Part shown: piece after piece, positions 17,727-60,000 of the stretch
Numbering within the stretch: the stretch's first letter is position 1
Layout of the letters: each line of letters begins with the position of its first letter
Assembly (NCBI GenBank): GCA_017964485.1
Contig: JAGCRW010000039.1
Coordinates: forward strand, 1,365 to 65,364
DNA from: Muribaculaceae bacterium
GTDB taxonomy: Bacteria > Bacteroidota > Bacteroidia > Bacteroidales > Muribaculaceae
Direction of reading: 5' to 3'
DNA length: 64,000 bases
Made by a program: the position numbers and the translations under genes
Notes under the pieces: generated by a model
What the model was told of the DNA's origin: nothing
Databases searched by the model: none
What the model saw: only the letters and a program-made list of their open reading frames with translations

Positions 17727-18605
17727 TTAATAGGCTCTTCCCGTTGCTGCCAGCAGGGTGTTGTGCATGAGCGAAACGATGGTCATGGGGCCTACGCCAC
17801 CAGGCACAGGAGTGATATAGCTGCACTTGGGGGCCACGTGCTCGAAATCAACGTCGCCGCACAGGCGCCAGCCGCGCTCACGGGTTTTGTCCTCGACACG
17901 AGTAGTGCCCACGTCAATTACCACAGCACCCTCTTTCACCATGTCTTCTTTCACGAAGTTAGGGCTACCGAGAGCGGCAATAATGATGTCGGCCTGGAGG
18001 CACATCTCCTTGATGTTGGGAGTGGCGCTATGACACACAGTCACGGTGCAGTTGCCTGGGTTGGCCTTCTGCATAAGCATGTTGGCGATGGGTTTGCCTA
18101 CAATGTTACTACGACCAAGCACCACGCAGTGCTTGCCACGAGTCTCGATGCCGTAACGCTCGAGCAGCATCATAATTCCCGATGGTGTGGCAGGTTTGAA
18201 ACAAGGCAGACCAATCATCATTCGGCCCACATTCACAGGATGGAAGCCGTCAACGTCCTTGCGATAGTCAATGGCCTCGATCACTGCCTCTTCGTCAATG
18301 TGCTTGGGCAATGGCAGTTGCACGATAAAACCGTCAACGCCTTTATCTTCATTCAGCTCTTGTATTTTTGCAATGAGTTCTTCTTGAGTGACAGTCTCTT
18401 CCATGCGGATAAGCGATGAGTCAAAGCCGCACTGCTCGCATGCTTTAGTCTTCGATGCCATATAACTCTCACTGCCACCGTCATGACCCACCAGCACGCC
18501 AACCAAATTGGGACGGCGACCGCCAGCAGCCACTATCTCTTTAACTTCGGCAGCAATCTCCTCTTTGATTTCAGCCGATATCTTTTTTCCGTCTATTATC
18601 TGCAT
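17727..18605 (-). CDS. folD: Bifunctional methylenetetrahydrofolate dehydrogenase / methenyltetrahydrofolate cyclohydrolase
   Basis: 292 aa. [18 protein letters not shown] start, [34 protein letters not shown]. Confidence 0.95.
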
Positions 18606-38276: not shown

Positions 38277-39752
38277 ATGACACATTACATTAGCGCTGAG
38301 CACCTCTCGATAGAGCGTGTTGGCGAAATAATTGAAAAGAACATCAAACTCGCGTTGAGCGATGACGCTCGTGAACGCATTATCCGTTGCCGCAAGTATC
38401 TCGACGAGCAAATCGCTGCCAGCGACGTGCCTGTCTATGGCGTGACCACTGGCTTTGGATCACTGTGCAACGTGAAAGTGAGCAAAGACCAATTATCACA
38501 ACTGCAAATCAACCTGATGATGTCGCACGCCTGTGGCGTGGGCGAGCGTGTGCCCAACGAGATAGTGCGCATCATGCTGCTGCTCAAAATCCAGTCGTTG
38601 AGTTACGGCTACTCGGGCAGCAAGCTCGACACTGTGGAGCGACTTATCGACTTCTTCAACGAGGGCGTGATTCCCGTGGTTTACCGTCAAGGCTCTCTTG
38701 GAGCTTCGGGCGACCTCGTGCCGCTGGCTCACATGAGTCTGCCGTTGGTTGGTCTCGGTGAGGTGGAATACGAGGGCAAAGTGATGCCAGCCGCCGAACT
38801 GCTCAAACTCAAAGGCTGGGAACCAATTGAACTCGCCAGCAAGGAAGGCTTGGCACTGCTGAACGGCACTCAGAACATGAGCTCGTTTGCAGTATGGTCA
38901 CTACTCCAGGCCGAGCGCCTGAGTGATTGGGCCGACAAGATTGCCGCCATGTCGCTCGACGCATACGACGGCCGCATCGAGCCATTCACCGAGGCGGTGC
39001 ATCTGGTTCGCCCACACAAGGGGCAACTCGAGACAGCCGCCCACATGAAAGAGCTGCTCACCGGCAGTGAACTAATCGCAGGCCATAAGGAGCATGTGCA
39101 AGACCCCTACTCTTTCCGCTGCGTTCCACAGGTGCACGGCACAGTTAAGGACACTATCCGCTATGTGAAATCGGTTATCGACACCGAAATCAACAGCGCT
39201 ACCGATAACCCAACCGTTTGCCCCGACGAGAACCTGATTATCAGCGCAGGCAACTTCCATGGCGAGCCCATCGCTATGCCTATGGACTTCCTCGCTATCG
39301 CGCTGAGCGAACTCGCCAACATCAGCGAGCGCCGCATCTATCGCCTCGTCTCTGGCACTCGCGGCTTGCCAAGCTTCCTCGTTGCCAACCCAGGCCTTAA
39401 CAGCGGTTTCATGATTACCCAATACACCGCTGCCAGCGTGGTTAGCCTTAATAAGTCGCTTGCCGCACCGTCGAGCCTCGATAGCATCCCTTCGTGCCAA
39501 GACCAGGAAGACCATGTGAGCATGGGCGCCAATGCCGCCATCAAGCTCTACAAGGTGGTGCTCAACACCGAGCGCGTGCTTGCCATAGAGCTGTTCAACG
39601 CCGCCCAGGCGCTTGAGTTCCGCTTCCCCAAGAAGTCTTCGCCAGTCATCATGAAGATGCACGAGGACTTCCGTCGTGAGGTGCCATTCATTGGCGACGA
39701 TGTGATTATGTATCCCCTCATTGAGAAAGCAATACAATTCCTTCGCAAATGA
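38277..39752 (+). CDS. hutH: Histidine ammonia-lyase
   Basis: 491 aa. MIO-forming Ala-Ser-Gly in GSLGASGDLVPLAH. Confidence 0.95.
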   Translation: MTHYISAEHLSIERVGEIIEKNIKLALSDDARERIIRCRKYLDEQIAASDVPVYGVTTGFGSLCNVKVSKDQLSQLQINLMMSHACGVGERVPNEIVRIMLLLKIQSLSYGYSGSKLDTVERLIDFFNEGVIPVVYRQGSLGASGDLVPLAHMSLPLVGLGEVEYEGKVMPAAELLKLKGWEPIELASKEGLALLNGTQNMSSFAVWSLLQAERLSDWADKIAAMSLDAYDGRIEPFTEAVHLVRPHKGQLETAAHMKELLTGSELIAGHKEHVQDPYSFRCVPQVHGTVKDTIRYVKSVIDTEINSATDNPTVCPDENLIISAGNFHGEPIAMPMDFLAIALSELANISERRIYRLVSGTRGLPSFLVANPGLNSGFMITQYTAASVVSLNKSLAAPSSLDSIPSCQDQEDHVSMGANAAIKLYKVVLNTERVLAIELFNAAQALEFRFPKKSSPVIMKMHEDFRREVPFIGDDVIMYPLIEKAIQFLRK

Positions 39753-40993
39753 AACTTCTAGTTAAGAATATCGCCACCCTCGCCGGTATCGACGGCGGGG
39801 GTGTGCTGAAAAGATGCGGCGAAGAGATGGCGCAGTTCGACGCTATCACCGATGCCTGGATGCTTGTGGAAGACGGCATCATCACCGAGTTCGACTCCGT
39901 AGCCAACCATCCCTTGCCCACTGATGTTGACGAGACTATTGATGCCGTTGGTGGCACTGTGATGCCCAGCTGGTGCGACTCTCACACTCACATCGTGTAT
40001 GCCGGCAGCCGTGAGAGGGAGTTTGTGGACAAAATCAACGGACTCTCCTACGCCGAAATCGCCAAACGTGGCGGCGGCATTCTCAACAGTGCCGACCGGT
40101 TGCACGAGATGAGCGAGCAGCAGCTCTACGACCAAGCAATGGAACGCGTGCGCGAGGTGATTGCCAAGGGCACCGGCGCCATCGAGATTAAGAGCGGCTA
40201 CGGCCTCAACACCCAAGACGAGATCAAGATGCTGCGCGTGATAGCCCGCATCCAGGAGAGCACCCGCCTGAGAGTTGTTTCCACCTTCCTCGGCGCTCAT
40301 GCCGTAGGCCGCGAGTATGCCGGTCGCCAGGGCGACTATGTTGACCTTGTTGTCAACGAGATGATACCCGCTGTTGCTGCCGAGGGATTGGCAAACTTTG
40401 TAGATGTATTCTGCGACGAGGGATTCTTCACTCCTGAGGAGACTTCGCGCATACTTGAGGCCGGCCTCAAGTATGGCATGCGTGGCAAGATTCACGGACA
40501 GGAACTGGCTCCCTCGGGAGGCGTGGAAGTGGCATTGAAGCACAATGCCCTCTCGGTTGACCACCTTGAGAGCATGACCGACGAAGACATCGCCATGATG
40601 CGTGGCCGCGACACCATGCCCACTGCCCTACCCGGCACCTCGTTCTTCCTGAACATGCCGTTTGCCCCTGCCCGCAAGATGATAACCGCAGGTCTGCCCG
40701 TGGCTATCGCCAGCGACTACAACCCAGGCTCTACGCCCAGCGGCGACATGAAGTTTGTGGTGTCGCTCGCTTGCATCAAGATGCGCCTTCAACCTGCCGA
40801 GGCCTTCAACGCGGCAACCATCAACGGCGCAGCGGCAATGGGCCTGAGCAACGACTATGGCTCGATAGCCCCCGGCAAAGTGGCGAACTTCTTCATCACC
40901 AAGCCCATCTCGAGCATCGACTTCATCCCCTACGCCTACACAACTCCAATCATCGCCCGCACCTTCTTAGCGGGAGAGGAACAGGTTTTTTAA
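39749..40993 (+). CDS. hutI: Imidazolonepropionase
   Basis: 414 aa. Amidohydrolase metal ligands (CDSHTHIVYAG; SVDHLE; IASDYNPGS). ATGA start/stop overlap with hutH. Confidence 0.95.
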   Translation: MKLLVKNIATLAGIDGGGVLKRCGEEMAQFDAITDAWMLVEDGIITEFDSVANHPLPTDVDETIDAVGGTVMPSWCDSHTHIVYAGSREREFVDKINGLSYAEIAKRGGGILNSADRLHEMSEQQLYDQAMERVREVIAKGTGAIEIKSGYGLNTQDEIKMLRVIARIQESTRLRVVSTFLGAHAVGREYAGRQGDYVDLVVNEMIPAVAAEGLANFVDVFCDEGFFTPEETSRILEAGLKYGMRGKIHGQELAPSGGVEVALKHNALSVDHLESMTDEDIAMMRGRDTMPTALPGTSFFLNMPFAPARKMITAGLPVAIASDYNPGSTPSGDMKFVVSLACIKMRLQPAEAFNAATINGAAAMGLSNDYGSIAPGKVANFFITKPISSIDFIPYAYTTPIIARTFLAGEEQVF

Positions 40994-41097: not shown

Positions 41098-43647
41098 TTA
41101 CTCTCCCAGCAAGATGTTGTAGATGCAGGTGATGTCGGTAGTTGTCACCACGCCATCGCCGTCAACGTCGCAGGTGTTGAGGTAGGTCTCGTCACCATTG
41201 AGCAGATAGTTGTAGATGCAGGTGATGTCGGTAGTTGTCACCACACCGTCGCCGTCCACGTCGCCATAGACAAGACTGTTGAGCGGAGTCTTGAAACCTA
41301 TCTCATATAGTTTGGAGAAGTCGTTGAAGATTACAACCTTATATATGACGCTTGGATCAAGTTCGTCAGATGCCAGCACCTCTATAGTGTTAGTGGTGGT
41401 GTTCTGCTTGGTTTGAACAGCAGTTTCGTTAGGTATGACAGTGCCGTCATCGCTAAGGGTGCACTCATAGATATACATCTTCAACGGAAAGGTCGAGTTG
41501 CTGCGATTCACGGCCAGCTGCTTCACCTGTGAGCAGTTGGTCACGAAGAACGTTTGGCAATCCTCGCTCCAGTCAGCAAACTGTCCCTCGCCAGCGAAGT
41601 AGCTTGCGCTGCCCACGAACACGTCGGTTGCAGTCCATGTCGCGGAACCAGTTCTCACAGTGCCCGCATTGGTGAACCAGTTCTGTGTGGCGTCGGCTTT
41701 TATCACGCCATAGTTAGAAACGGTGAGCCAACCACATTCCTCGCTCTCACGCTCGGTGTATTTGTAGAGATTGCGGATGTCGCTGGTGTTCCACCCTGCC
41801 TCGTCGATAGTCTCATATTTGGAGATGTCGAGATATGGGTCGCTGGCAGTGTTGCCCTCGTTGGCCTTTCCTGTGAGCTCTACTGTCACGCTTTCGGCAC
41901 CATTGCTGCTAAATATCAGTGAGCCCGAGAAGCGGCCCTCGACCGATGGGTGGAAGGTGACAGCAACCTCAACTGGAGTGTCGAGATTGACGCTGCTCTG
42001 AGGAATAGTTGTTGGCGAAACGATGAACGCACCGTTATTGTCGTTAAGAGTGAGCGTCACGTCGCTAGTGAGATATACGCCAGTGAGGCTGACAGTCTTA
42101 GTGATGGGTCGCTTGAGAGATGTGGTGTAGTCGAGCGATGTGGGCTCAACAATAAGGGTGGGCACATGAGGCCGCGCCACTCCAGTGATGGGCACAACAA
42201 CCGTCTCCACATTCTCGTCGGCACACGAGAGGGTGAGAGTTGCGCTAGTCGAGCCAGCCTCTGTGGGAGTGTAAGTGACAACCACGTCAACTCCACTAGC
42301 AGCCTCTTCAGCAGTGATGGTGGTGTGACTCACGCTGTAGGCATTATCGCCACTGAACGCAATGTTGATGTTACTCTCAATGTTGTGAGCCTTTATTCTT
42401 ACCTCTTGGGTGTAGGTCTCGCCGGCAAAGCCTTGGAAGTCAACTGCCGAAGGGGTGGCTCTTATTATGCCAATCGAAGGCTGGACACCGATAATCATTA
42501 TCTGATTCAGGTTGAAGTTGGCGCCAGTATCATCGACAAAGGCATTCAAGGCACACCAGGCGTTGCCCTCGCCACTCCAACCGAAATTCACGTGATACTT
42601 ATTGGTTCCAGAGTCATAACCATCGACGTTGAAGGCGTGGCCACCGGCATTGCCAGCAGTGCCCAAGTAAACTATTGGACGACCTTCTATTATCTCCTCT
42701 TGAATGAGAGCCGCCCAACTAGCGTCATTGAAGTTTTCCTTTTGAACCATGCGAGTGGTCGCCTCATCATAGCCGAAGCCAATGAACATGTCGGCAATAA
42801 TCTGAGCGTCGGCGGTGTAGATGCCACTGCCTCCAGCATCGGGAGTGCCATATTTCATGTGCTCGGCCTGGCCCACATAGCGCATCAGGGTGGCAACAGC
42901 ATTGGCTTGAGCGGTAGTGTAACCAGTGGCGTGAGAGCTGGTGTAGTCGTCAATCATGTTGTCCCAGTCAAAGGTGACAGCGGGCAGAGCAGGATAGGTA
43001 TAGTTCACGCTAGTCCATGTGCCTATTTCAAGCACTCCATCGTAGGCAGGAACTGGTCCCACTTGCGTGAGGGGATACTTCCAGTAGTAAAGTACCATCG
43101 ATGCCGAGGTGGCAGGGCAACCTGTGTAGCACATATAGTTTGTGCCATTGTAGTTAAATTTGCATTGGTTCCAGTAAGGAGCCTCTTGATCCCAAAGGGC
43201 AGTAAGCAGTGGGCCAATGGTTGTGGCATTGATTTTTGGCGACTTGTAGGTCGTGGACCTTTCAACCTTTGCCTCGGGGTGAGCAAGCAGCCAGTCGAGC
43301 TGCACCTTGTAACCGTCGAGCCATGCCTGCATGTTGGTGGGTATGCGGTCAGGGTTTAGAGGCTTGTCACCATAGGCGAGGATTTCCTCGGCGCGGTCGT
43401 CGCCCGACACGATGACATAGGATGTCTCGGTGTTGAAGATGTAATACACAGGAGCCTTAACAGTCTCGCCAATCTCGGTCTTGACAAGTTTGGCATCGAC
43501 AGTTCCAGGAGTCATGTACTTGCCGGCATACACTTTTTGAGCAAGATATTGCTCGGCCTTGGTCTTGGCTGTTGATACATCAACAGGCGCTGCCGTCAGC
43601 TGCAACGCAACCGCCATGACAGTAAGTAGTGATAATAGCTTTTTCAT
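41098..43647 (-). CDS. P1: secreted C10 (streptopain-type) cysteine peptidase with Ig-like repeats, module A and a C-terminal dockerin-type module
   Basis: 849 aa. Signal peptide MKKLLSLLTVMAVALQLTAA. Spi/C10-propeptide-like N-region. Catalytic Cys in CYTGCPATSASM (codon 43117-43119), His in AGGHAFNVDGYD (codon 42637-42639), then NFGWSG. Two Ig-like repeats (aa ~393-595). Module A aa ~597-789 (nt 41281-41859). Dockerin-type tail nt 41101-41268. Confidence 0.85.
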   Translation of the reverse strand: MKKLLSLLTVMAVALQLTAAPVDVSTAKTKAEQYLAQKVYAGKYMTPGTVDAKLVKTEIGETVKAPVYYIFNTETSYVIVSGDDRAEEILAYGDKPLNPDRIPTNMQAWLDGYKVQLDWLLAHPEAKVERSTTYKSPKINATTIGPLLTALWDQEAPYWNQCKFNYNGTNYMCYTGCPATSASMVLYYWKYPLTQVGPVPAYDGVLEIGTWTSVNYTYPALPAVTFDWDNMIDDYTSSHATGYTTAQANAVATLMRYVGQAEHMKYGTPDAGGSGIYTADAQIIADMFIGFGYDEATTRMVQKENFNDASWAALIQEEIIEGRPIVYLGTAGNAGGHAFNVDGYDSGTNKYHVNFGWSGEGNAWCALNAFVDDTGANFNLNQIMIIGVQPSIGIIRATPSAVDFQGFAGETYTQEVRIKAHNIESNINIAFSGDNAYSVSHTTITAEEAASGVDVVVTYTPTEAGSTSATLTLSCADENVETVVVPITGVARPHVPTLIVEPTSLDYTTSLKRPITKTVSLTGVYLTSDVTLTLNDNNGAFIVSPTTIPQSSVNLDTPVEVAVTFHPSVEGRFSGSLIFSSNGAESVTVELTGKANEGNTASDPYLDISKYETIDEAGWNTSDIRNLYKYTERESEECGWLTVSNYGVIKADATQNWFTNAGTVRTGSATWTATDVFVGSASYFAGEGQFADWSEDCQTFFVTNCSQVKQLAVNRSNSTFPLKMYIYECTLSDDGTVIPNETAVQTKQNTTTNTIEVLASDELDPSVIYKVVIFNDFSKLYEIGFKTPLNSLVYGDVDGDGVVTTTDITCIYNYLLNGDETYLNTCDVDGDGVVTTTDITCIYNILLGE
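41101..41268 (-). other. Dockerin-type duplicated segment (P1)
   Basis: YGDVDGDGVVTTTDITCIYNYLLNGDETYLNTCDVDGDGVVTTTDITCIYNILLGE. Confidence 0.7.
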
Positions 43648-43866
43648 TGATGTTTTATTATATAGTATAGTTTGTTATTAAGTTAATTGTAATGTGTGAG
43701 TGTGTCAAAACTCAGATTTAAAATAAACAACTGAATTATCTGATGTTTCTGATTTCTCTATATCCTGACTGACAATGTTTTAAAAAATTGCAAATAATCA
43801 GATTAATCAGAAAAATGCGGTTAAGCGAGTCAAAGCATGAGCTTGCTCAATGTCTTGCGAGCGTGT

Positions 43867-43938: not shown

Positions 43939-46900
43939 TTATTCTCCTAACAATATGTTGTAGATGCAAGTGATGTCAACGCTCGTGATGCTGCCATCGC
44001 CATTGACGTCACAAGTATCGAAATAGGTAGTGTCGCCATTTAGCAAGTAGTTGTAGATGCATGTGACATCCACACTTGTCACTACCCCGTCGCCGTCAAC
44101 GTCGCCATAGACCTGCGAACCAGCAGCAAGGGTGGTGACACTGATAACGTTAGACCAACTTGTCTCCTTAGCACCAAACACTGCCTTCACATCATAGAAA
44201 TAAGTGGTGCTTGCGTCAAGGTCAAGAACCTTATAGCTGTTAGCTGTGATGCCAGTGAATGTAACACCATCATAATCGATTGACTTAGCAGCGCCTGCAT
44301 GCTCGCCATCGATGACGTGGATGCTGGTGAGTATCACACGTTTGCCACCGGCTGTTGTCTCAAACTTGATCTTCTGGCCAGCACCAGGATTGCAGTCAAG
44401 CACTACAGTGTAGGTTGCCTCAGTGTTATCGGGCAAAGTAACTGTCTCACTTGCGTTACCGCAAGAAATCTTGAAGTTGCAGTTAGTGTCGCTGTTGAAG
44501 GCCTTAGCCTTGAAAGTTACAGCAACCTTGTTGTCGGTCAATGTAAGGTCAGGAGAGGTCAAGCTTCCAACCGAAGAACCAGTGCCAAAACGAACACCGC
44601 CAATATTCTCATAGAGCTTAGAGCCTGTCCAGCCTGTATTGTCCATAAAGTCGTCGAGACTGTTGTCTATGTCCACAGAGCCTGCCTTGGTGCATTTTGC
44701 GAAGCTCTCGGTGAGGATGTCGTAGTTCTTAGGCACTACGCGCAGAGTGTAGCTGTCGGCGCCCTCGCAGGGCATCCAGTTAGCAACGAAGCTGTTAGCA
44801 GTAATCTCGGTAGCGGCAGTTGCCACTGACACGGGATAAGTCGCGAGAGGCAGCTTAAAACCTATCTCATAGAGGTAAGAATAGTCATTATAGATGTTGA
44901 CCATGTAAATCTTGGACGCATCGAGTTCGCTAGAGGTTATTACCTCGGCGGCATTATAAACCGAACTTTGCTTGGTGTCGATAGGAACGCTTCCTGCAGT
45001 GACTGTGCCATCGGGATTGAGCGTGCACTCATAGATGCGCATTATCAATGGATAAGTAGAACTGCGGTTGTAGGCATACTGCTTAGCCTGAGTGCAGTTG
45101 GTCACATAGAAATACTGGTTGAGACCATTCCAGTCGCAGGCATAGCTGGTCTTGGAACCAAAATAGCTGTCGTCGCCCAAGAACACGTCGGTAGCATTCC
45201 ATGAAGTGCTGTAAGATTCGGTGATGTTGTTGGTGAACCATCCCTGCATAGAGCTTGCCATCATCACGCCATAGTTGGAGACGGTGAGCCAAGCACAGTC
45301 TTGGTCCTCATACTCGGTGTACCTATACAAGTTCGGAATGTCGCTCACATTCCAGCCTGCCGCGTCAATGGTCTCATATTTCGCAATGTCGAGATATGGA
45401 TCATTGGCAGTGCCGCCATCAACAACTTTTCCCATGAGCTCAACGGTCTTGCTCTCGGCACCCTCGCTGGTGATTGTGACTGATGCGTTATAATCGCCTA
45501 CCGCAGCAGAGTTGAATGTCACAGTCAGCGCCAGCGGTGTGTTGACATTGGTGCTGCTTTGAGGAATTGCCGTTGGCGAAACGGTGAAAACGCCATTCTC
45601 GTCGTTGAGCGTAACAGCCACGTCATTGGTCAAGAACGCGCCAGTGAGTGTGATGATCTTAGTCACTGGCGACGACTTAGTGGTAGTGAAGTTGAGTGTC
45701 GCGGGATCTACAAGCAGTGTGGGCACGCGGGGCATTGCCGCTCCAGTGATGGGCACGGCAACGGGTGCCACGTCCTCGTCGGGGCAGTTCAGTGTGAGCA
45801 GTGCCTCGCTGTTACCTGCCTCAGCAGGAGCATAGGTGACAACCAAGTCAAAACCATTTGCAGCCTGCTCAGCAGTGATGGTGGTGGCGTTAATGCTGTA
45901 AAGATCAGAACCAGTAAAGTCAACGGTGATGTCGCTTGCGATGTTAACCGCGTCAACTCTCACAACCTCAGTATAGGTCTCCCCGGCAAACCCATTGAAG
46001 CTCACCTGCTCAGGATTGGCAATGATTCTGCCTATTGGAGGCTGGATGCCAAGCACCATGCGCTGATTGTCGCTGAAGGTGTAGGTTCTTGCCGAAAATG
46101 CGTTCATGGCATACCAACTGTTACCCTCGCCACTCCAGCCAAAGTTCACATGATATTTGTTGAGACTTGGGGCATAGCCGTCAACATTGAAGGCATGGCC
46201 TCCTGCTCCGCCAACGTCAACACCACAGTACACCACGGGGCGATGATGGATAATCTCCTCTTGCACCATCTGCGCCCATTGGTCTTCGCTATAATCGCTC
46301 TTTCTCACAAAACGGCATATTGACGCGTCATAGCCGAAACTAATGTACATATCGGCAATACCTTGGGTGTCGCTGGTGAAAATTCCGCTACCCTCAGTGC
46401 CATACATCATGTGCTCCTTTTGGCCCACATAGCGCATCAGCGTGGCAACAGCAGCAGCTTGCTCTGGGGTGTAGTCGCCAGTGTAGTCGTCAATCATGTT
46501 GTCCCAGTCGAAGGTGACAGCGGGCAGGGCAGGATAGGTGTAGGTTACGCTATTATATTCTCCCAGATCAAGAGTAGTAGTATAAGAAGGGATAGGACCC
46601 ACCTGATGGGTGGGGTATTTCCAGTGATACAGAATCATCGATGCCGAAGTGGCAGGGCAACCAGTATAGCACTCATAGGTTGTGCCATTGTAGGTGAAAT
46701 GACACTGGTCATTAAAGGGAGCAGCCTGATACCAGATGGCAGTCAGCAGTGGCCCTATGGGGAGGTTGCCCTTAAGCTTCGGCGACTTGATGGCCGTGGG
46801 TTTGTCAACCTTCACATCAGGATGAGTGAGCAGCCAGTCGAGCTGCTGCTTGTAGTTGTCGAGCCACGACTGCATGTTAGCTGGTATGCGGTCAAGGTTA

Positions 46901-47568: not shown

Positions 47569-50500
47569 TTATTTTTTTGCTCCAAGGAGGATGTTGTAGA
47601 TGCATGTGATGTCGGTAGTTGTAACTACGCCATCGCCGTCAACATCGCAGGTGCTGAGGTAGGTCTCGTCACCATTGAGGAGATAGTTGTAGACGCATGT
47701 GATGTCGGTAGTTGTAACTACACCGTCGCCGTCAACGTCGCCATAGACACCAGCACCGCCGCCAAGTGTGGTAACCATAATCTGATTAGACCACTTGGTT
47801 TGCTTAGCGCCAAAGACAGCCTTCACGTCATAGATATAGGCAGTAGAAGGCAGCAGGTCGAGCACCTTGAAGCTATTGGTAGTGATGCCTGTGAAGGTGG
47901 CACCGTCCTCATCGATTGCGTTGAGGGTAGTGTTGCTGTGGTCGCCATCCTGGACGTGGATTCTAGTAATAACCACACGCTTGCCCTTAACCACATTCTC
48001 GAAGGTGATGGTCTGGTCGGCAGCGATGTCGCAGTCGAGAACAACGGTAAAGTTTGCCTCATTGTTGTCGGCGAGAGTCACTGTCTGGCTTGAGTTGCCG
48101 CAAGAAACCTTGAGCTCGCAGTCGGTGTCGTTGTTGAACGCCTTAGCTTTGAACTTAACGGTTACCTTGCCCTCGCTTGTGAGGAGGTTGAGTCCAGGCG
48201 AAGTTAAAGTGCCAGTTGTAGAGGCAGTGCCCAAACGCATGCCACCAATAGCCTCATAAACCCTGTAGCCAGTCCAGCCTGTATTGTCCATAAAGTTGTC
48301 GAGATTGTTACCGATATCCTGAGCGCCAGCCTTGGTGCACTTAGCGAATGTCTCTGTGAGGATGTCGTAGTTCTTAGGCGCTACTCGCAGGATGTAGCTG
48401 TCGGCGCCCTCGCACAGATTCCAGTTGGCGACGAAGCTATTGGCAGTGATCTCGGTTGCGTCGGTAGCAACAGGAGTCTCATAAGTGGTGAGTGGAGTCC
48501 TGAAGCCAATCTCCAAGAGGTCGGGATAAGAACCTCCACCAGTGAGCTTAACCATATAAATCTCGCCCTCGTCAAGATTGGCCGAAGTGATAACGCCGTT
48601 GCTGCCCGATTGAGTGTCGACAGCAGTAGTTGCTGGAGTTACACTTCCGTTGGCATTGAGCGTGCACTTGTAGATTGCCAATGTTGCCGAAGAGCTGCTG
48701 TAACCGCCACCCTTAACATAAGCCTTGACTTGTGTGCAGTTGGTCACATAGAATGACTGATAGTTGCTTCCATAAACCGAATAAGCCTGGTTGCTGCCAA
48801 AGTAAGCGTTCTGGCCTGGGAAGATATCATTAGCGTCCCAAGAATTGGAGTACTCGGTGAGCGAATTGCTGGCAAACCAGTTTTGGTTGGCATCGGCCTT
48901 AGCTGCACCATAGTTAGAAAGGGTGAGCCAAGCGCAGTCTTGCTCCTCATACTCTGTGTACTTGTAGATTGTGTTCATGCCAGTGACATTGGCGCCAGCC
49001 TCGTCGATAGTCTCATAATTAGCGATATTGAGGAATGGGTCGATAGCAGTGCCACCATCACGAGCGATACCGGTGAGGTTGACAGTCTTGCTCTCGGCGC
49101 CCTCGCTGGCAAATGTGATTGAGCCATTGAATGTGCCCTCAACCGACGAGCTGAATGAAACAGCAACAGTAACAGGGGTGTTGACATCGGTGCTGGTTTG
49201 AGGAATTGCTGTGGGTGTAACGGTGAATACACCATGAGTGTCATTGAGTGTGACAGTAACGTCATTGGTCAAGAACGCTCCGGTGAGCTCGATGGTCTTG
49301 GTCACTGTTCTGTCAAGTGTAGCGCTGAAGTCAAGGTTCTCGGCAGTAACAAGGAGTGTAGGAACTCGTGGAGCAGCTACACCAGTGATGGGAACAACAA
49401 CGTCCTCAACTTCCTCGTCGGCACACGAGAGAGTGATACTTGCTGAGGTGTTGCCTGCCTCAGTGGGAGCATAGGTAACCTCCACGTTAACACCAGCAGC
49501 TGCCTCGGCAGCAGTGAGAGAAGTGTGGCTGATGCTGTAAACATTGTCACCAGTCAGGGTGATATTAATATCGTTCTCAAGGTTGCGGGCCTGAACTTTC
49601 ACAATCTGAGTGTAGGTCTCACCTGCAAAGCCATCGAAGTTAACCTCCGAAGGATTGGCCTTAATCATGCCCATAGGAGGCTGAATACCGATAACCATCT
49701 GCTGGTCGCTGTTGAAGGTGTAGCCACCACCATCGGAGAAGGCATTCATGACACACCAATTGTTGCCGTCGCCACTCCAACCGAAGTTGATGTGATACTT
49801 GTTGGTATTGGAGTTATAACCATCAACGTTGAAGGCGTGACCGCCAGCGCCTGGGTCAACAGCCATATAGACTACAGGACGTCCCTCGGCCATCTCTTCT
49901 TGCAACATCTGTGCCCAAGCAGTCTCGCTGTAACTTGACTTGAGAACCAGCTGAGTAGTTGACTCATCATAGCCAAACTCAATAAACATATCGGCAACGT
50001 TCTGCGCATCGCTAGTGTAGATGCCACTACCGCCAGCTGAAGCGGTGCCATACATCATGTGCTCGGCATGGCCCACATAGCGCATGAGTGTAGCTACTGC
50101 TGCACCCTCTTCGGCAGTGTAGGGCTCGTTTTGTGTGGCGCCATTCTCATCATACCAAGTTCCATATTTGTCTTTCATGTTGTCCCAATCAAAGGTTACT
50201 TGGGGCAGAGTGGGATAATTGAAACTCACATCATTCCAGTAGCCAAGCGAAAGTGTGCCTGTAAAACCTTGCAGTGGGCCAACAGGCTCAACTGGGTATT
50301 TCCAATAGTAGAGCACCATCGAAGCCGATGTAGCAGGGCAACCAGTGTAGCATGTGTAGTTAGTGCCACTGTATGTGAAATGACACAGGTCGTTGTAGGG
50401 TGCCAACTGATCCCAGAGAGCGGTCAGCAGCGGGCCAATTACTGTGTTGACAAGTCCGCCGGACCTGAAAGTGGTGGGTTTGCTTACTTTCGCTTCGGGG

Positions 50501-51088: not shown

Positions 51089-53191
51089 TTATTGAGCGCC
51101 TAAGAGGACGTTGTAAACTACAGTTACATCGGTAGTAGTGATTACACCGTCGCCATCCTGATCGCCGTTAACCAAGTACTCAGTGTCGCCAGTGAGCAGG
51201 AAGTTGTAGAGTACAGTGACATCGACACTTGAAACAACACCATCGCCGTTAACGTCGCCAACTACAGGCTCACCAACAGTAAGAACTGTGAGAGTCATGT
51301 CATTTGAGTTAATGCGGAAGGTGTACTCACCACCTTGCTCAATGCGGAAGTTAGCGCCGTCAACCATAGCAAGTGGCTGGTTGAGCAGGTCGCCGTTGAT
51401 CAAGAAGTAACCAACACCATTGTCATCTTGGCCACCATACCAAGTCCAGCCATCCTCTGCAGGAGTGATAACCTTGAACTCAGCGCCAGCCTCGAGAGTG
51501 CCTTGAGTCTCATAAACGCCTTCGGTGGCTGTAGAGGTAAATACCAATCGACCGCCATCCTCGGCTTGATTCCAGTCATTGAATGTACCTACCACGTAGA
51601 ATTCCATTGGCTCAACGTCTTCATCCTCAATGAACAGGTTTTCGGGCCATGGCTTGATGCAGATTGGAATTTGGTTAGACCAGTCGCTCTCCTGACCGTC
51701 GTAATAAACGGAGCGAACATCGTAAACATAGTAGCCGTAGTCCATGATCTGGATAGACATATCAATTTGCTGATTGCCTGCTGCATTTGTATAATAACCA
51801 AAGTGGAAGCTGGTGCTGTCGCTAGGAATATTATGAACGAAAACGGTGTCGCCACTCCATGCGGGCTGTATATACCTAGGAGAAGCAACATTCTGTGGCT
51901 CGCTGTAATCGCCATAATAAACCTTCATGTCGGTTATCGCAATGCGATGGTCGCCGCCATCTTCATAATTGCCCATGTTCTGGAACAAATAGATGGTGTG
52001 GAAAATCGAATAATAATTGGGAAATTCCCTATCCATTACAAAGGTGTACCACTTCTCGGGACCAGATACTACTATTGTCGAATCCATAGTGCCGCCGTTT
52101 ACTCTGAGCAGGCAATCGGTAGCATCGCCATAGGGTTTTGCCTTAACCTTAAGAGTGAATTTCTTAACGTAACGATAGATAACAACATCGTCTTCCATTG
52201 GCGATTGAAGCATACCATTAACATCAATCACAACTCCGCCGTCGGTTCCGCTTATGTTGCGGCCGTACCAGCCGTCGTGATCAGTCTTGCCATCGATGTG
52301 AGCATAATCCTCATATACGTCACCCTCGCTGCAATTTGGGAATTTCTCGCGGTAAACCAAGCCTTCTTGAGTGTCGGTTGGGTAAACTCGTATTGAGTAG
52401 CTCTTGGCTCCTGGGCATGGACTCCAATGGCAAGCAAAGCCTTCGCAGAGAATGGCATCTGACTCAGGATTATCAGGATAAACTGGATGAGTAGTGATAT
52501 CTGTTACGTCATAAGCCTCGGGAGTAGTGATCTCACCTACTTCACCTGGAGTCTTGAAAGCTATCTCATAGAGATAAGCGTAGGCGTTAGCAACCTCTAC
52601 CATGTAAATCTTCTCAGGATCGAGAGTACTTGAAGCAAGTATTTCGACGCCAATTTCAGAGTTCTGAACTGTCTCAACAGGATTAGCATCAGGAGTGATA
52701 GAGCCGTCGGCATTACGTGTGCACTCATAGATGTTCATCTTTGTGAGATAGTAAGAAGAGTTACTGCGGTGATAGGCATAGAGCTTAACCTGTGTGCAGT
52801 AAGTCACATAGTAGGTCTGTTTCTTAGTGGGCTGCTTGTACTTTGCCGAATAAGCAGTGTTGCTGCCAAAGTAGGCGGCAGGGCCTTGGAAGATGTCGGT
52901 AGCTGTCCATGGACCAGTGTAGTTGCTGGTGTTGTCGGCATCGGTAATTTCATTGGTAAACCAGTTTTGAGTAGCGTCGGTCTGCATCACGCCATAGCAA
53001 GAGAGAGTCAGCCAATAATTTCCATTGACTTCGTTGTACTTGTAAATAGTCTCCATTCCATCAACAGTAGCTCCAGCCTGATCGATGGTGGCATACTTAA
53101 TGGGGTTGAGGTAGGCATCGCTAGCGGTGCCTGCAGCCATCATTGGCAGAACAACCGCCATGACAGTCAATAGGGATAATAGTTTTTTCAT
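51089..53191 (-). CDS. P4: protease-less paralog (signal peptide + module A + divergent module B + CBM-like beta-sandwich + dockerin-type module)
   Basis: 700 aa. The signal peptide MKKLLSLLTVMAVVLPMMAA is near-identical to that of P1 and is joined directly to module A (GTASDAYLNPIKYATIDQAGATVDGMETIYKY...YLYEIAFKTP). There are no C10/S8 motifs and no Ig repeats. A unique ~125-aa segment MEFYVVGTFNDWNQ...EFKVITPAEDGWTWYG...YTFRINSNDMTLTV follows. Dockerin-type tail nt 51092-51262. Confidence 0.8.
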   Translation of the reverse strand: MKKLLSLLTVMAVVLPMMAAGTASDAYLNPIKYATIDQAGATVDGMETIYKYNEVNGNYWLTLSCYGVMQTDATQNWFTNEITDADNTSNYTGPWTATDIFQGPAAYFGSNTAYSAKYKQPTKKQTYYVTYCTQVKLYAYHRSNSSYYLTKMNIYECTRNADGSITPDANPVETVQNSEIGVEILASSTLDPEKIYMVEVANAYAYLYEIAFKTPGEVGEITTPEAYDVTDITTHPVYPDNPESDAILCEGFACHWSPCPGAKSYSIRVYPTDTQEGLVYREKFPNCSEGDVYEDYAHIDGKTDHDGWYGRNISGTDGGVVIDVNGMLQSPMEDDVVIYRYVKKFTLKVKAKPYGDATDCLLRVNGGTMDSTIVVSGPEKWYTFVMDREFPNYYSIFHTIYLFQNMGNYEDGGDHRIAITDMKVYYGDYSEPQNVASPRYIQPAWSGDTVFVHNIPSDSTSFHFGYYTNAAGNQQIDMSIQIMDYGYYVYDVRSVYYDGQESDWSNQIPICIKPWPENLFIEDEDVEPMEFYVVGTFNDWNQAEDGGRLVFTSTATEGVYETQGTLEAGAEFKVITPAEDGWTWYGGQDDNGVGYFLINGDLLNQPLAMVDGANFRIEQGGEYTFRINSNDMTLTVLTVGEPVVGDVNGDGVVSSVDVTVLYNFLLTGDTEYLVNGDQDGDGVITTTDVTVVYNVLLGAQ
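51092..51262 (-). other. Dockerin-type duplicated segment, V-class (P4)
   Basis: VGDVNGDGVVSSVDVTVLYNFLLTGDTEYLVNGDQDGDGVITTTDVTVVYNVLLGAQ. Confidence 0.7.
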
Positions 53192-53409: not shown

Positions 53410-56400
53410 TTATTGACCGCCTAGGAGGACGTTATACACTACAGTCACATCGGTAGTGGTGATTACACCATCGCCATCTTGATCTCCGTTGACCAAGAAC
53501 TCAGTGTCGCCAGTGAGCAAGTAGTTGTAGAGTACAGTGACATCGACACTGGAAACAACACCATCACCGTTAACGTCGCCAAGAACAGGAACAACGATGT
53601 CGTCCTTGAGAGTGGTAACCTCAATCAGGTTAGACCAGTTGCTCTCCTTATTGCCGAAGAGGGCCTTCACATCATAGATGTAGGTAGTCTCGGGCTCAAG
53701 ACCGATAACGGTATAGCTAGTGGCTGTGATTCCAGGGAACAGCATCTCGCCAGCAGCCTTAGCAGAGCCTGTTGTGATATCGCCCGAATAAATCTCGATG
53801 CCAGTGATAATCACGCGCTTGCGGTTGGCTGTTGTAGCAAATGTAACGTTCTGTCCAGCAGATGCCGAGCAGTCAAGCACTTGGGTGTATTGGGTCTCGG
53901 TGTTGTTTGGAATTGTAACTGTCTCGCTATTGCTGCCGCAAGAAATTGTCATATTGCAGTTAGTGTCGTTATTATAAGTCTTAGCCTTATAAACAATGCT
54001 AACCTTGCCATTGCTGCCTGTAAGGTCGAGAGCAGGGCTGATGAGAGTCCCCTTTGCATTACTAGAACCTAAACGGATGCCACCTACAGCAGTATAAACA
54101 GTTGAACCAGTCCAACCGGCATTGTCCATGTAGTTGTTGAGCGAGTTGCCAACGTCATTAGAGCCATTAGTAGTGCAGTTGCTGAATCCCTCAGTGAGGA
54201 GCAGAGTGTAGGCAGGAGCCTCAGGCTTAGGCATCACGCGCAGGGTGTAGCTTGTGGCGCCATCGCAGGCATTCCAGTTGGCAGTAAATTCATTAACACC
54301 AATCTCGGTAGCCTCGGTGGCTACTGGAGTCTCAATGCCCTCAATAGGAGTTTGGAAAGCAATCTCATAAATGCGAGAGTAGTCATTGTAGATTCTCACC
54401 TTGTAAATCTTGCTTGGATCCAAGGTTACTGAAGAGAGTATTTCGTCTTGATTAGTGGTTTGAGTCTCTTTATAATCAACAGTAGAGATGCCAGCAGATA
54501 GAGTTCCGTCGGCATTCAATGTGCACTCATAAATCTCCATCTTCAATGGATAAACATTGCCACTGTTATAAGAAGACTGGATGTTGTAAGAGAGTTGCTT
54601 AACCTGAGTACAGTTAGTTACATAGAAGTTCTGGTATGCCTCGTTCCAGTTGCAATAATAAGCTGTTCCTGTGAAGTAGCTGCTACTTCCCTGGAAGATA
54701 CCATTGGCGGTCCAAGAGCCTTCGGCGTTCTTCTCGTTGCCTTCATAGTCGAGCCAGTTCTGGTTGATATCGGCTTGCTCAGCACCATAGTAGGAAACGG
54801 TGAGCCAAGCGCAGGCATCGCCAGGATACTCAGTGTACTTGTAGATTGAACTCATGCCGCTAACTGTAGCGCCAGCCTCATCAATAGTCTCATACTTGGC
54901 GATGTTGAGATATGGATCGCTTGCAGTGCCGCCGTCGTTGGCCTTAGCTGTGAGCTGAACGGTCTTGGTATCGGCGCCATTGCTGGCGATTGTAAGCGAG
55001 CCATTGAAGTTGCCCTCGTTGGCCGAACTGAATGTCACTGTAACTGGAACACCATTGGCTGCGTTGGCAGCGGTGATAGTGGTTGGCGAAACACTGAACA
55101 CACCGTTGTTGTCGTTCAAAGTCACTGTAATATTGTTAGTCAGGAACAAACCAGTAACATTGATGGTCTTGCTGACAGTTGACGACAAGTTTGCGTTGAA
55201 ATTGAGCGAAGTGGGGTCAACGTTGATGGTTGGAACCTTGGCTTGGGCTGAACCTGTAACGTTCACTGTCACGCTCTCGGCATTGGTGCTGGCGAGAGTG
55301 ATATAAGCGTTGGCGTTGCCAACTTCGGTGGGCTTGTAGGTTACTGTCACCTGCACGCCATTGGCTGCATTGGCAGCGGTGATGGTGGTAGGAGAAACAG
55401 TGAAGTAGTTTGAACCTTGTTTATTGACGGTAATGTTGCCCTCGAGGTTATAGCCTGTAACTGTGAAGGTCTGAGTGTAGGTATCACCAACAAAGCCCTC
55501 AAATGCGAGGCTGGTAGGATTAACAACGATATTTGGGCCTAAAGCGCCAGCGGGAGGCTCAATGCCGATAATCATAGCCTCGCCATAATTGAAGGTGTAA
55601 GAACCCGACTGACCAGTAGCACCAACGGCAGTAGTGAAGTTGTGCAGAGTGCAGTAGCCATTGCATTGGCCACTCCAACCCCAGTTCACATAATACTTAC
55701 CACTGCTATCGCAGCCAAACACATTGAAAGCATGACCTGCAGGCTGGTAACTGCTGCAGTCATAAGCGAGATATTCAATGGGGCGTCCTGCCTGCAACTC
55801 GGCCATCATCCATTCGTTCCATTGAGCGTCGGTGTATTGCGCGGGACCATTGGTGTAACTCCATCCCGACGAAACCAGTTCGTTAAGGGTAAGCAACTGT
55901 GCATCGGTATAACCCATAGTGTGGCAAGCCTCAAGAATCTCTGGGTCGTTGGCACCACTGGCATCAGTGCCATACTCCATGGTACAAGCCTGGCCCACAT
56001 AACGCATCAGCCAAGCAACAGCATCGGCTTGTGCCGAAGTATAGGAGGCTGAATGAGTGCTGCTATTATCATCATACCAAGTGCCGTAATGGTCAACGAT
56101 GTTGCCCCAATCGGCTGCTCTTTCAGGCAGAGCATCGGCAGCGAGACCGTAGTAGCTTTGTGGAATAGCGGCAATGGCGGGATAGGTGGTAGGCCATTTC
56201 CACTTATAGAAACACATAGCCAACGAAGTGGCAGGGCAGCCAGTTACGGCATGTGTGTTGCCACTGGTTGGGGTGTGGTTGTAGTAAGGAGCGCTCTGGT
56301 CCCATGTAGCGGTTACCAGCGGAGCAATAGCTGTTGCACGTGGTGAGTAGTTGTTAGGGATCATCGTTCCAGCCTTGAGACCGTCAATCTGATATTTGTA

Positions 56401-57043: not shown

Positions 57044-60000
57044 TCACTTAACCACAACTTTTTTATTGCCTACGACGTAGATGCCTGCTGGGAGGTTTTG
57101 TGTTGCCTCGCCGGCCTTAACGTTGCGGCGGATGAGCTGACCTTGAGCGTTGTAAACGTTCACAATCTCATTGTAGCTATCCATGCCGATGGTGTTAACA
57201 GCAGTTGGCGTTCCAGGCATGCGCAGCGCGTAACCAATGTAGTTCTGGAAGTCATAGTCATAGTCTAGTGGAGCAATGCCGGCTTCATTGTGCCAAGGCT
57301 CCTTGAGGTTGATAGCGCAGCGTACGGTGTAGCGCTGTCCGTTCACCATAGTGTTGGTGTTAGCACCCCAAGTGTAGTCAATAGTCATACTCTGACCTTG
57401 TGCACTACCATTAGCACCTTGATAAGCGCGGAGAGCGCCTTCGGCAGCGTTCCACCAACCAGTCACGTCAACAACCTGGTTGCTTACTAATGTGAATGAC
57501 TCAGCGAGGTTGATAGGCTCAATGTAGTTCACATAATCAGGGCTTATTGGATCTTTGCCCTCAGGTTGCACAGTAACGGTGAGTACTGGGTTAAGCTCGA
57601 TGCCACTGAGTGTGCCCTTGAGTGTTCCGCCCTTGATGAGAACACTCTCAGCAAACACATCAAACACGTCATTATCGGGTGCTGCAATGCGAATCCAGTT
57701 GCCCTCGCCGTCGGTGAGGAAGGCGTAGTTCTCAACATCGGCAACGTCAACCATTATTAGGTCGTTGCTAACGGTGTATTCCTGATTGTTCACGCCATTC
57801 TCAAGGATGTAGGCGAGAGTAGTCTCTTCCTCCACAACGATTGGAGTCTGGAAGCCTACTGCCAAGAGGTCGGGATAAGAGCCGCCACCAGTCAAGACAA
57901 CCTTATAAATCTTAGAAGCGTCAAGAGTTGCCGAAGTTATCACAGCCAAGCCACTTGCGCCGCCTTGCTGCGAGTCAAATGGAGTAGATGCAGCTACAGG
58001 TTGTCCATTAACGCCTACTGTGCACTCATAGACTGCCAAAGTTGCTTTACTGCTGCTACCATCCTTAACCAAGGCCTTAGCCTGGGTGCAGTTGGTCACA
58101 TAGAAGGTTTGGCTTCCACTACCATAAATACCGTATGCTTGGTTGGTGCCAAAGAATGCATCATCAATTGGGAATATATCGGTAGCGGTCCAAGAGTTGT
58201 TGTACTGATTCAGCGATGAGGTTTCGAGCCAGTTTTGGTTGGCATCAGTCTGCTTGGCACCGTATGTGGAGATTGTGAGCCAGCCGCAGTTGTCGGCCGC
58301 ATACTCGGCGTAGTTGTAAATTGATGTCATGTAATTTACTGATGCACCTGCATCATCAATAGTGGCATACTTGGCGATGTTGAGATAAGCGTCGCTTGCA
58401 GTGCCACCATCGTTGCAACGGCCAGTGAGGTTCACTGTGGTTGTGAGAGTGCCACTTGTGAGGGTGATAGTGCCTTGGCAACTTGCCTCCTCGTCGCTCT
58501 CGAAGGTTACGGTGAGCTGTGTGCCAGCCTCTGCATCGGCCTTGCTGATAGTGGTAGCCGAAACAGTGAATACGTTGTCAGGATCGTTCAAAGCCACAGT
58601 CACGTCGCCTGGGAGCATCTTGCCGCGCACGCTGATAGTGGCGGTGCCAGTCTCGCCAGGAGCAGAAGTGATTGTCACGTTGCTTGGGTCAGCAACAATC
58701 ATAGGCTGGTTGAGCTCGGTCTTGAAGCCAATCTCCAAGAGGTCGGGATAAGAGCCGCCACCAGTAAGTTGCACCTTATAAATCTTTGTTGGATCAAGTC
58801 CGGCCGAAGTTATCACACCATTGTTGCTTTGCTTAGTATCGGTTGCTGTATTTGATGGTGTGATAGAGCCATCACCATTGAGTGTGCACTCATAGATTGT
58901 CAGTTTAGCATTTGAGCTAGAAGAGCTGCCACCCTTAACGTAAGCCTTTGCTTGTACGCAGTTGGTAACGTAGAAGGTTTGGCTTCCATTTCCATAAATA
59001 GAATAAGAATTGTTGCTGCCGAAGTAAGCATCATCACCTTGGAAGACATCGGTCGCACTCCAAGTGTTGGTATATTGTGACAAATCTGAGGTCTCATACC
59101 AATTCTGGGTATCATCGGCTCTAAATGCACCATAGTTGCAAACGGTGAGCCAAGCTGCATCGCCATCCTCGGTGTACTTGTAAATTGTCGACATGCCGCT
59201 CACTGTAGCGCCAGCCTCATCGATAGTGGCATACTTAGCGATGTTGAGATATGGATCGGCAGCAGTGCCACCGTCATTAGCCTGAGCATTGAGGGCAACG
59301 GTCTTAGTCTCGCCACCTGGGGTGGTGAATGCTACAGAGCCGCTATATGTTGCCTCCTCATCGCCCGAAGTGAAGGTCACAGTCACTTGAACTGGAGTGT
59401 TCTCACTGATGCTATTCTTAGGAATAGTGGTTGGCGAAACGCTGAACACGCCGTTCTGGTCATTGAGTGTTACAGTCACATCGCCAGTAAGGAAGAGACC
59501 TGTAACGTCGATAGTCTTACTAATTGTTGATGACAGAGCAGCTTTAAAGTCTAATGTCTCGGGATTAACGATAACAGTTGGAACTCGTGGAGCAGCCACA
59601 CCAGTAACGGGCACAGTCACAGCCTCGGCACCATTGCTGGTGAGAGTGAGAGTGGCATTGGTGTTACCAGCCGCTGTTGGAGCATAAGTCACTGTCACGT
59701 CAACGCCATTGTTAGCATCATCGGCACTGATGGTGGTTGGAGTCACGCTGTAAACGTTAGCGCCACTCTTGGCGATGCTGATGTTGCCGGTGAGGTTGTA
59801 ACCCTTCACGTTGATGGTCTGGGTATAGGTCTCGCCAACATAGCCCTCAAAGTTCACCTCATCAGGAGTAGCCTTGATGACTGGACCTTGGTTATTGAGA
59901 ATATACTCGATGCCTGCCAGAGCATTGATAATACCATGACCACGCTGCTTAGCAGGGCTGGTTGGGTTGGTGAATTGTGTTGCTGTATTAGCAATCACGT

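Follow-up and report, generated by a model that had tools for sequence, protein, structure and literature searches.

Classical carbohydrate-binding modules (CBMs) are borne by carbohydrate-active enzymes, the MAM domain is an interaction domain attached to proteases, and Kgp, RgpA, and HagA combine a protease, immunoglobulin (Ig)-like domains, jelly-roll modules, and a C-terminal domain (CTD) in this order. Within the part of a rumen survey considered here, a C10 peptidase with a dockerin is noted among Bacteroidetes, and protein-catabolic functions are common among dockerin proteins other than carbohydrate-active enzymes (Bensoussan et al. 2016; PMC6487960). Here, we analyzed a 64,000-nucleotide stretch of a Muribaculaceae genome (assembly GCA_017964485.1, contig JAGCRW010000039.1; hereafter, the window), in which seven consecutive minus-strand open reading frames (ORFs), running from position 41098 to the window end and encoding large secreted proteins (P1 to P7; Table 1), share a module of ~190 amino acids (aa) that we call module A. 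On sequence grounds, module A is an undescribed domain family. An earlier note on this DNA had proposed it as a possible receptor for the dockerin tails of the array proteins; we instead favor, with moderate confidence, a ligand-binding targeting module.

Compared with CBMs of the CBM6/22/35/44 type, module A is likewise a predicted jelly-roll beta-sandwich in the range of ~150 to 190 aa, has such modules as its top structural matches, occurs in one to three copies on secreted enzymes with conserved aromatic loop residues, and belongs to proteins able to end in a dockerin. It differs from them in the absence of sequence similarity, in template modeling (TM) scores of 0.32 to 0.43, and in being borne by peptidases rather than glycoside hydrolases. 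With the cleaved adhesin domains of gingipains and HagA (PF07675; K1, K2, and K3 of Kgp) it shares a jelly roll repeated after a protease and Ig-like domains and before a type IX secretion system (T9SS) CTD in Bacteroidales, but it is also found with dockerin tails, on C10, S8, and M6 rather than C25 peptidases, and without a match to that profile. Like cohesins (PF00963), module A has a (predicted) beta-sandwich fold and may recur within one surface-anchored protein where the organism is rich in dockerins; unlike them, it usually sits on the same polypeptide as the catalytic domain and the dockerin, and its copy number is unlinked to anchoring. The meprin MAM domain and the Eph receptor ligand-binding domain fall into the same broad jelly-roll class but are eukaryotic families with ~10% identity, TM scores of at most 0.43, and no sequence-level link. 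Finally, the dockerin-bearing C10 peptidases of the rumen survey are the same kind of host protein as P1 to P3 and P5, whereas module A is not mentioned and no cognate receptor is named in the part of that source considered here (PMC6487960).

Module A is a repeated domain without a family match

By our boundaries, the module A copy of P1 covers residues 599 to 788; the span originally given (41281-41859) corresponds, in frame and on the minus strand, to P1 residues 597 to 789. Translation of this interval on the plus strand is stop-rich, so the module-bearing feature lies on the minus strand. The eight copies in the array display 38 to 66% pairwise identity over 185 to 195 aa, with 38 invariant columns, a similarity far above chance; the repeated module is real, as the earlier note had reported. 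The positional features described there also held: the module follows the last Ig-like repeat in P1 to P3 and P5 to P7, with a preceding repeat for each of the P6 copies; in P4 it is fused directly to the signal peptide; and P6 is the sole array protein with two copies, as well as the sole one with a T9SS-type CTD and no dockerin. The P6 C-terminus scored below the cut-off of NCBIfam TIGR04183 (17.3 versus 23 bits; E = 0.0036) and was clearly matched by a CTD model built from 39 family tails.

The earlier statement that the module cannot be assigned to a family was borne out by Pfam, NCBIfam, and PDB sequence searches that included 30 diverse members. Pfam assigned no family to the eight window modules (E up to 10) or to the 30 members (E up to 1), with neither Cohesin nor Cleaved_Adhesin among the matches. 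No NCBIfam model matched module A, and profiles of 8 and of 30 members, run against every chain sequence in the PDB, returned chance-level matches only, among which a dynamin PH domain (E = 0.07) and antibody VH domains (E ≥ 0.006) were rejected as such. DUF4092 (PF13322), hit by the P1 copy alone (19.7 bits versus a cut-off of 22.2; E = 8.7e-4) and thereby by one of the 30 members, was rejected as well. Sequence membership in the known CBM families of Pfam and the PDB was not found, nor did searches of the literature on Bacteroidetes or Muribaculaceae dockerin systems yield a description of module A.

The family is very small. Searched exhaustively with HMMER, 1.84 billion cluster representatives yielded 211 proteins at E ≤ 0.001; E was below 1e-30 for 98, and no protein had more than three module A copies. 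A scan of genome loci, based on one genome per GTDB species and a pattern that reaches the close subfamily only, found 56 loci, the best of them 96% identical. All come from ruminant-gut metagenome-assembled genomes, labeled Muribaculaceae, Sodaliphilus, or "uncultured Bacteroidales/Prevotellaceae/Porphyromonadaceae." Relatives of traceable source all stem from Muribaculaceae-type assemblies of the ruminant gut, within a small set of rumen and gut Bacteroidales. A metagenome locus scan with a narrower alignment added only one locus, L057, which also belongs to the close subfamily, and word-indexed protein searches gave 17, 7, and 130 mostly short fragments, with a taxonomy extending little beyond Muribaculaceae.

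Predicted fold and conserved residues

AlphaFold2 reached a predicted local distance difference test (pLDDT) score of 81 from a shallow alignment and, for the P1 copy, of 94.1 (predicted TM score, 0.91) from an alignment of 30 diverse members, all five models of the latter reaching at least 91.9. Module A is predicted to be an all-beta sandwich of the jelly-roll type with two short helices. Both models were searched against the PDB with Foldseek, and the best 50 matches were considered. The top matches (probability, 0.99 to 1.0; E, ~1e-4) were PKD-CBM44 (2c26), CBM22 (1h6x/1dyo), CBM6 (1uy1/1gmm/1o8s), and the CBM of a pectate lyase (8x8h); others included the meprin MAM domain (4gwm and 7uac), the Eph receptor ligand-binding domain, and the K1/K2 domains of Lys-gingipain (4itc at rank 6 in one search and 3km5 at rank 31 in the other), likewise with a probability near 1. 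Cohesins, which are beta-sandwiches too, were absent from the best 50 matches of either model. The models thus place module A with high confidence in the broad jelly-roll class of ligand-binding domains, without a close solved relative. Structure prediction, suggested earlier as a way of placing the module in a known CBM or lectin family, led to a CBM-like fold class but to no known CBM family.

The residues invariant or nearly so across the family are A3, L8, W59, Y171, and F187 (numbering of the P1 module), and conservation extends to Y7, Y13, Q57, W73, F79, G81, Y85, and E184. Most of these family-conserved residues are aromatic, and their positions are in the loops that connect predicted strands, next to loops that vary in length. 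Several fall in segments that lack regular secondary structure in the model, around residues 52 to 60 and 70 to 90, which is where the predicted binding loops would be expected. The cysteines, by comparison, do not define the family. The earlier note had listed those in CAWLT, TNC, and YEC as conserved; two of them (TNC/TYC and YEC/YKC) are indeed invariant in the window copies, whereas the CAWLT cysteine is missing from P4 and P6a (the first P6 copy). Of 154 family modules, 39, 87, and 107 carry a Cys in the respective columns, the two commonest of which do not covary (both present in 52 modules, only one in 55, only the other in 35, and neither in 12). A Cys-based definition of the module was therefore rejected on account of this partial filling, and an obligate disulfide appears unlikely from the same pattern.

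Domain partners and exchangeable tails

The 41 full-length relatives combine module A with S8 (11 proteins), C10 (6), or M6 (4) peptidase domains, Ig-like domains (~18), dockerins (9), and Cleaved_Adhesin (3), and the commonest layout in the family is a single module A with a T9SS CTD, often on an enzyme. In relatives devoid of a peptidase, module A comes right after the signal peptide, domains of the Big_5, Big_2, Flg_new (Listeria-Bacteroides repeat), X25, or CBM26 kind come next, and the chain closes with a T9SS-type tail. The module occupies the mature N-terminus in 47 of 100 complete CTD-tailed representatives. A tip module on a stalk of repeats with a surface anchor at the C-terminus is the classic adhesin layout and, by analogy, suggests binding to something external, for which it is the strongest architectural argument. 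As an observation apart, the mature chain of proteins with an N-terminal module A starts with Gln (Q-TASD...) in 30 of 46 CTD-tailed proteins and in none of 8 dockerin-tailed ones.

The two kinds of tail are exchanged. Over the first 600 residues, the adjacent C10 proteases L057:135-3800 and L057:3999-7904 (locus number and coordinates) share 78% identity, yet their tails differ, with a dockerin in one and a T9SS-type domain in the other; several representatives with P5-like or P1-like N-termini also terminate in a CTD (P0040, P0050, and P0051). To judge by such sequences, dockerin and T9SS CTD are swapped between close paralogues. Module A is a "choice-of-anchor" kind of domain, present independently of the mode of attachment, so a cargo-side function such as target binding fits better than a role in the anchoring system. 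The dockerin-tailed proteins P1 to P5 carry a Sec-type signal peptide only (e.g., 43570-43647), without a T9SS domain or a lipobox. We know of neither a receptor nor an outer-membrane export route for the dockerins of a Gram-negative T9SS organism.

Proposed role and alternative explanations

The explanation that we consider probable on balance is that module A acts as a ligand-binding targeting module. Its carriers, with one to three copies, are mostly multidomain peptidases (S8, C10, and M6), the rest being enzyme-free proteins with an Ig-repeat stalk and the module at the distal N-terminal tip. The C-terminal tail, be it a T9SS sorting domain or a dockerin, would fix the protein to the cell surface, with the Ig-like repeats serving as a stalk. 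Module A would then bind its target via the conserved loop residues Q57, W59, W73, D77, F79, G81, Y85, and F86 of a putative binding site (P1 numbering), and such binding would hold the protease against its substrate. A glycan or glycoprotein is the leading guess for the ligand because of the fold neighbors and the aromatic-rich conserved loops, most plausibly one on feed particles, other microbes, or host material. The evidence favors in this regard the fallback of the earlier note, a substrate- or glycan-binding domain.

Several points weigh against this explanation. The structural matches are at the superfold level only (TM scores of 0.29 to 0.43 with ~10% identity) and fix neither a ligand nor a ligand class. 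The conserved aromatics have been located by predicted secondary structure only, and they may lie in the core instead of at the surface. The catalytic partners are almost all peptidases, with X25/CBM26 and DUF4957/DUF5123 domains, which are starch and pectin associated, in 2 of the 41 relatives; that glycoside hydrolase partners are nearly absent argues against a conventional plant-polysaccharide CBM. Lastly, the dockerin subtype appears limited to the same narrow taxon, a Muribaculaceae lineage, as the close module A subfamily, as a receptor-ligand pair would show.

Among the alternatives, module A might be an association module in the style of the gingipain hemagglutinin/adhesin domains, which holds processed protease fragments and their partners in noncovalent surface complexes or binds protein substrates, independently of dockerins. 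The succession of protease, Ig-like domains, one or more jelly-roll modules, and CTD in T9SS Bacteroidales is that of Kgp, RgpA, and HagA; P6 and many relatives, arranged as S8, Ig, module A, an optional further Ig and module A, and CTD, carry the module where Cleaved_Adhesin domains stand. Kgp K1 and K2 are among the structural matches, and Cleaved_Adhesin and DUF2436 proteins occur inside related arrays. Yet the TM scores to K1/K2 (0.29 to 0.32) are below those of CBMs, Pfam returned no Cleaved_Adhesin match, and hhalign gave a probability of 2.6% between module copy A4 and a neighbor (L054:205-1674) that is judged Cleaved_Adhesin-like by its motifs and is not Pfam confirmed. Evidence of processing sites between domains was likewise not found. 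We regard this alternative as unlikely. Separately, we noted that L036:3852-5798 and its neighbors encode gingipain-type proteins with DUF2436, Cleaved_Adhesin, and fibronectin type III (FN3) domains and a T9SS-type tail, interleaved with module A/dockerin proteases.

The earlier note had speculatively read module A as a receptor of the dockerin tails and the two-module, T9SS-anchored P6 as an anchoring scaffoldin. In this hypothesis as considered here, module A is a noncohesin receptor, and dockerin-tailed proteases and leucine-rich repeat (LRR) proteins would dock on P6, or else on each other, to form a multiprotease complex at the surface. In the window, the only CTD-anchored array protein is indeed the only one with two modules and without a dockerin. 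The dockerins are genuine (Dockerin_1 scores above its cut-off in seven window proteins) and are also found on proteins devoid of module A, among them the one at 24200-26140 and, from related loci, LRR, DUF285, and S8 proteins. Scanning of window ORFs brought up no cohesin, and multicopy family members are mostly CTD anchored (22 of 24). Moreover, cognate cohesins for Bacteroidetes dockerins are scarce in the part of the rumen survey considered here (1.7% of cohesins against 8.8% of dockerins; PMC6487960).

Family-wide, this arrangement proves to be local to P6. Among representatives at 50% identity, single-copy proteins (77 with a CTD and 15 with a dockerin) and multicopy proteins (22 and 2, respectively) do not differ significantly in their tails (Fisher P = 0.52), and proteins with two modules and a dockerin do exist (L013:111-4163, L038:3920-7984, and L044:4357-8409). 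Scaffoldin logic places receptors on anchors and dockerins on receptor-less subunits; instead, 108 of 151 dockerin-tailed ORFs in related loci bear module A in cis (redundant counts, as loci overlap), and in P1 the dockerin begins only ~5 residues past module A on the same chain. The modules do not segregate by tail either: of 23 modules on dockerin-tailed and 118 on CTD-tailed proteins, 6 and 17, respectively, have their nearest neighbor on a protein with the other tail, and the P2 module is closest to that of a CTD protein. Identity of the P3 module to P6a (65%) and to the second P6 copy, P6b (61%), is as high as that between the two P6 copies (61%), which speaks against a separate module of scaffoldin type. 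In many distant members, the module forms the N-terminal tip of an adhesin-like protein with a CTD, and none of these proteins has a dockerin. Added to a fold of the CBM/MAM/adhesin type, with no cohesin among the best 50 structural matches or in the Pfam searches of 30 members (E up to 1), these data leave the receptor hypothesis unsupported and somewhat disfavored, and we deem it improbable. Its wider form, a T9SS-anchored, cellulosome-like multiprotease complex in which C10/S8 proteases and LRR adhesins dock on CTD-anchored module A and daisy-chain via their own copies, is likewise improbable. If it were true, dockerin-tailed proteins might, as a further possibility, pass the T9SS as hitchhikers in folded complexes, and their crossing of the outer membrane with a Sec signal alone would then be explained.

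Related arrays also encode a conserved protein of 455 to 478 aa that ends in a T9SS-type tail (L001:15239-16606 on the minus strand, L007:15302-16738, L030:3095-4531, and L040:7418-8788); the window lacks a homologue. Its signal peptide, ending in AWA, is immediately followed by a Cys (CTAVIASGK..DGRPFIFKNRD), which we take to be reminiscent of N-terminal nucleophile (Ntn)-type hydrolases or dipeptidases. We considered this protein as an alternative anchor and rejected it; it has no Pfam match, carries the said Cys, and is not cohesin-like.

That module A is a ligand-free structural, spacer, or folding-support domain of long secreted proteins is the least probable explanation, and a very improbable one: the module always lies inside a chain of beta-sandwich domains and no ligand is known, but aromatic and polar loop residues are strongly conserved family-wide, as is seldom the case in spacers, roughly every second complete CTD protein has the module at the very start of its mature chain, and paralogues of the same genome diverge in the variable loops.

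Array proteins and genomic context

The coordinates of the array proteins, their modules, and other relevant genes are compiled in Table 1.

Table 1. Array proteins, module A copies, and further genes of the window
Feature	Position (nt)	Strand	Description	Evidence
P1	41098-43647	-	849 aa; signal peptide, I69 propeptide, C10 peptidase, 2 Ig-like repeats, module A, dockerin (41101-41265)	
P2	43939-47190	-	C10 protease, Ig-like repeats, module A, FN3 with inserted domain, dockerin (43942-44106)	
P3	47569-50868	-	C10 protease; P2-like layout; dockerin (47572-47742)	Pfam
P4	51089-53191	-	Nonprotease: signal peptide, module A, modules without assignment, dockerin (51092-51259)	
P5	53410-56757	-	C10 protease, module A, dockerin (53413-53580)	Pfam
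P6	57044-61699	-	S8 subtilase, Ig-like repeats, module A, Ig-like repeat, module A, ~190 aa without assignment, T9SS-type CTD (about 57047-57292); no dockerin	
P7	61890-63998	-	Ig-like repeats, module A, FN3 with insert, dockerin (61893-62063); N-terminus cut by window end	
Module A copy 1	41284-41853	-	P1 residues 599-788	
Module A copy 2	44848-45414	-	P2 residues 593-781	
Module A copy 3	48493-49053	-	P3 residues 606-792; same subtype as both P6 copies	
Module A copy 4	52547-53131	-	P4 residues 21-215, straight after signal peptide	
Module A copy 5	54346-54930	-	P5 residues 610-804	
Module A copy 6 (P6a)	58715-59269	-	P6 residues 811-995, first copy in P6	
Module A copy 7 (P6b)	57842-58405	-	P6 residues 1099-1286, second copy in P6	
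Module A copy 8	62799-63365	-	P7 residues 159-347 of listed ORF	
hutH	38277-39752		Histidine ammonia-lyase; histidine utilization	
hutI-like gene	39749-40993		Imidazolonepropionase-like amidohydrolase; histidine utilization	
Urocanase	13860-15860		Histidine utilization	
Formiminotransferase-cyclodeaminase	15922-17613		Histidine utilization	
FolD	17727-18605		Histidine utilization	
LRR protein	24200-26140	+	BspA-type LRR, Big_2, and dockerin; without module A	

Pfam detected the I69 propeptide and a C10 (streptopain-type) peptidase in P1, P2, P3, and P5, the P1 values being 9.6e-44 for Peptidase_C10, 3.5e-18 for Inhibitor_I69, and 9.7e-13 for Dockerin_1; Peptidase_S8 matched P6 at 6.7e-29. Ig-like repeats of the ASH/CFAP65/"choice-of-anchor D" kind were found by Pfam and NCBIfam in all array proteins but P4. 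The Dockerin_1 (PF00404) tails of P1 to P5, P7, and the LRR protein score 38 to 52 bits against a Pfam cut-off of 22.9 and contain the duplicated Ca2+-binding loop-helix repeat. They comprise a C type (P1 to P3), a V type (P4 and P5), and mixed tails (P7 and the LRR protein). The frame of P7 is open up to the window edge (63998), and the listed GTG start at 63839 is not genuine; P7 is probably another protease cut off by the window end. Occurrence of a dockerin on the LRR protein, which lacks module A, means that this tail is used beyond module A proteins in this genome. A complete histidine-utilization (Hut) gene set flanks the protease array, which suggests a locus given to protein and amino acid foraging.

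Two segments next to the dockerins deserve mention. In P2, an FN3-like domain split by an insert of ~120 to 150 aa lies between module A and the dockerin (44110-44847; residues 782 to 1027), with equivalents in P3, P5, and P7; the insert weakly matches part of the T9SS surface endonuclease model NF052644 (positions 49 to 173; E = 4e-11, far under the cut-off). Just ahead of the P4 dockerin (51317-51616; residues ~526 to 625), there is an FYVVGTFNDWN motif in a segment that has no Pfam match and presumably resembles starch/glycogen-binding modules.

Gut metagenomes of bovine, sheep, and goat origin contain P1 DNA. A 3.2-kb contig from a bovine rumen metatranscriptome covers 41279-43658, module A included, at ~94% identity, and a close P1 homologue is thus probably transcribed in vivo, with DNA carry-over as a possible source. 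A 47-nucleotide interval inside P4 (51450-51496) reached word depths of ~1800 and ~440 in two bovine metatranscriptome runs, with contigs diverging on both sides; the probable cause is a short stretch in common with some unrelated, abundant transcript, and not P4 expression.

Implications

What is new here is the domain family itself; its fold class is a familiar one, as is the logic of equipping a secreted enzyme with a binding module. The extent to which dietary nitrogen is lost as ammonia is controlled by protein breakdown in the rumen, whose uncultured Bacteroidales have surface proteases that are, to our knowledge, poorly known. This lineage has multiplied secreted C10/S8 proteases beside an amino acid catabolic pathway, each protease bearing a domain described in no database, and the Hut-flanked array is consistent with a protein-foraging role. 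Also notable is the frequent use, by a Gram-negative organism with a T9SS, of genuine dockerins that close paralogues replace with T9SS sorting domains. The definition of module A provides domain databases with a new family, which may be a new CBM or adhesin family, and offers a handle on the targets of these proteases.

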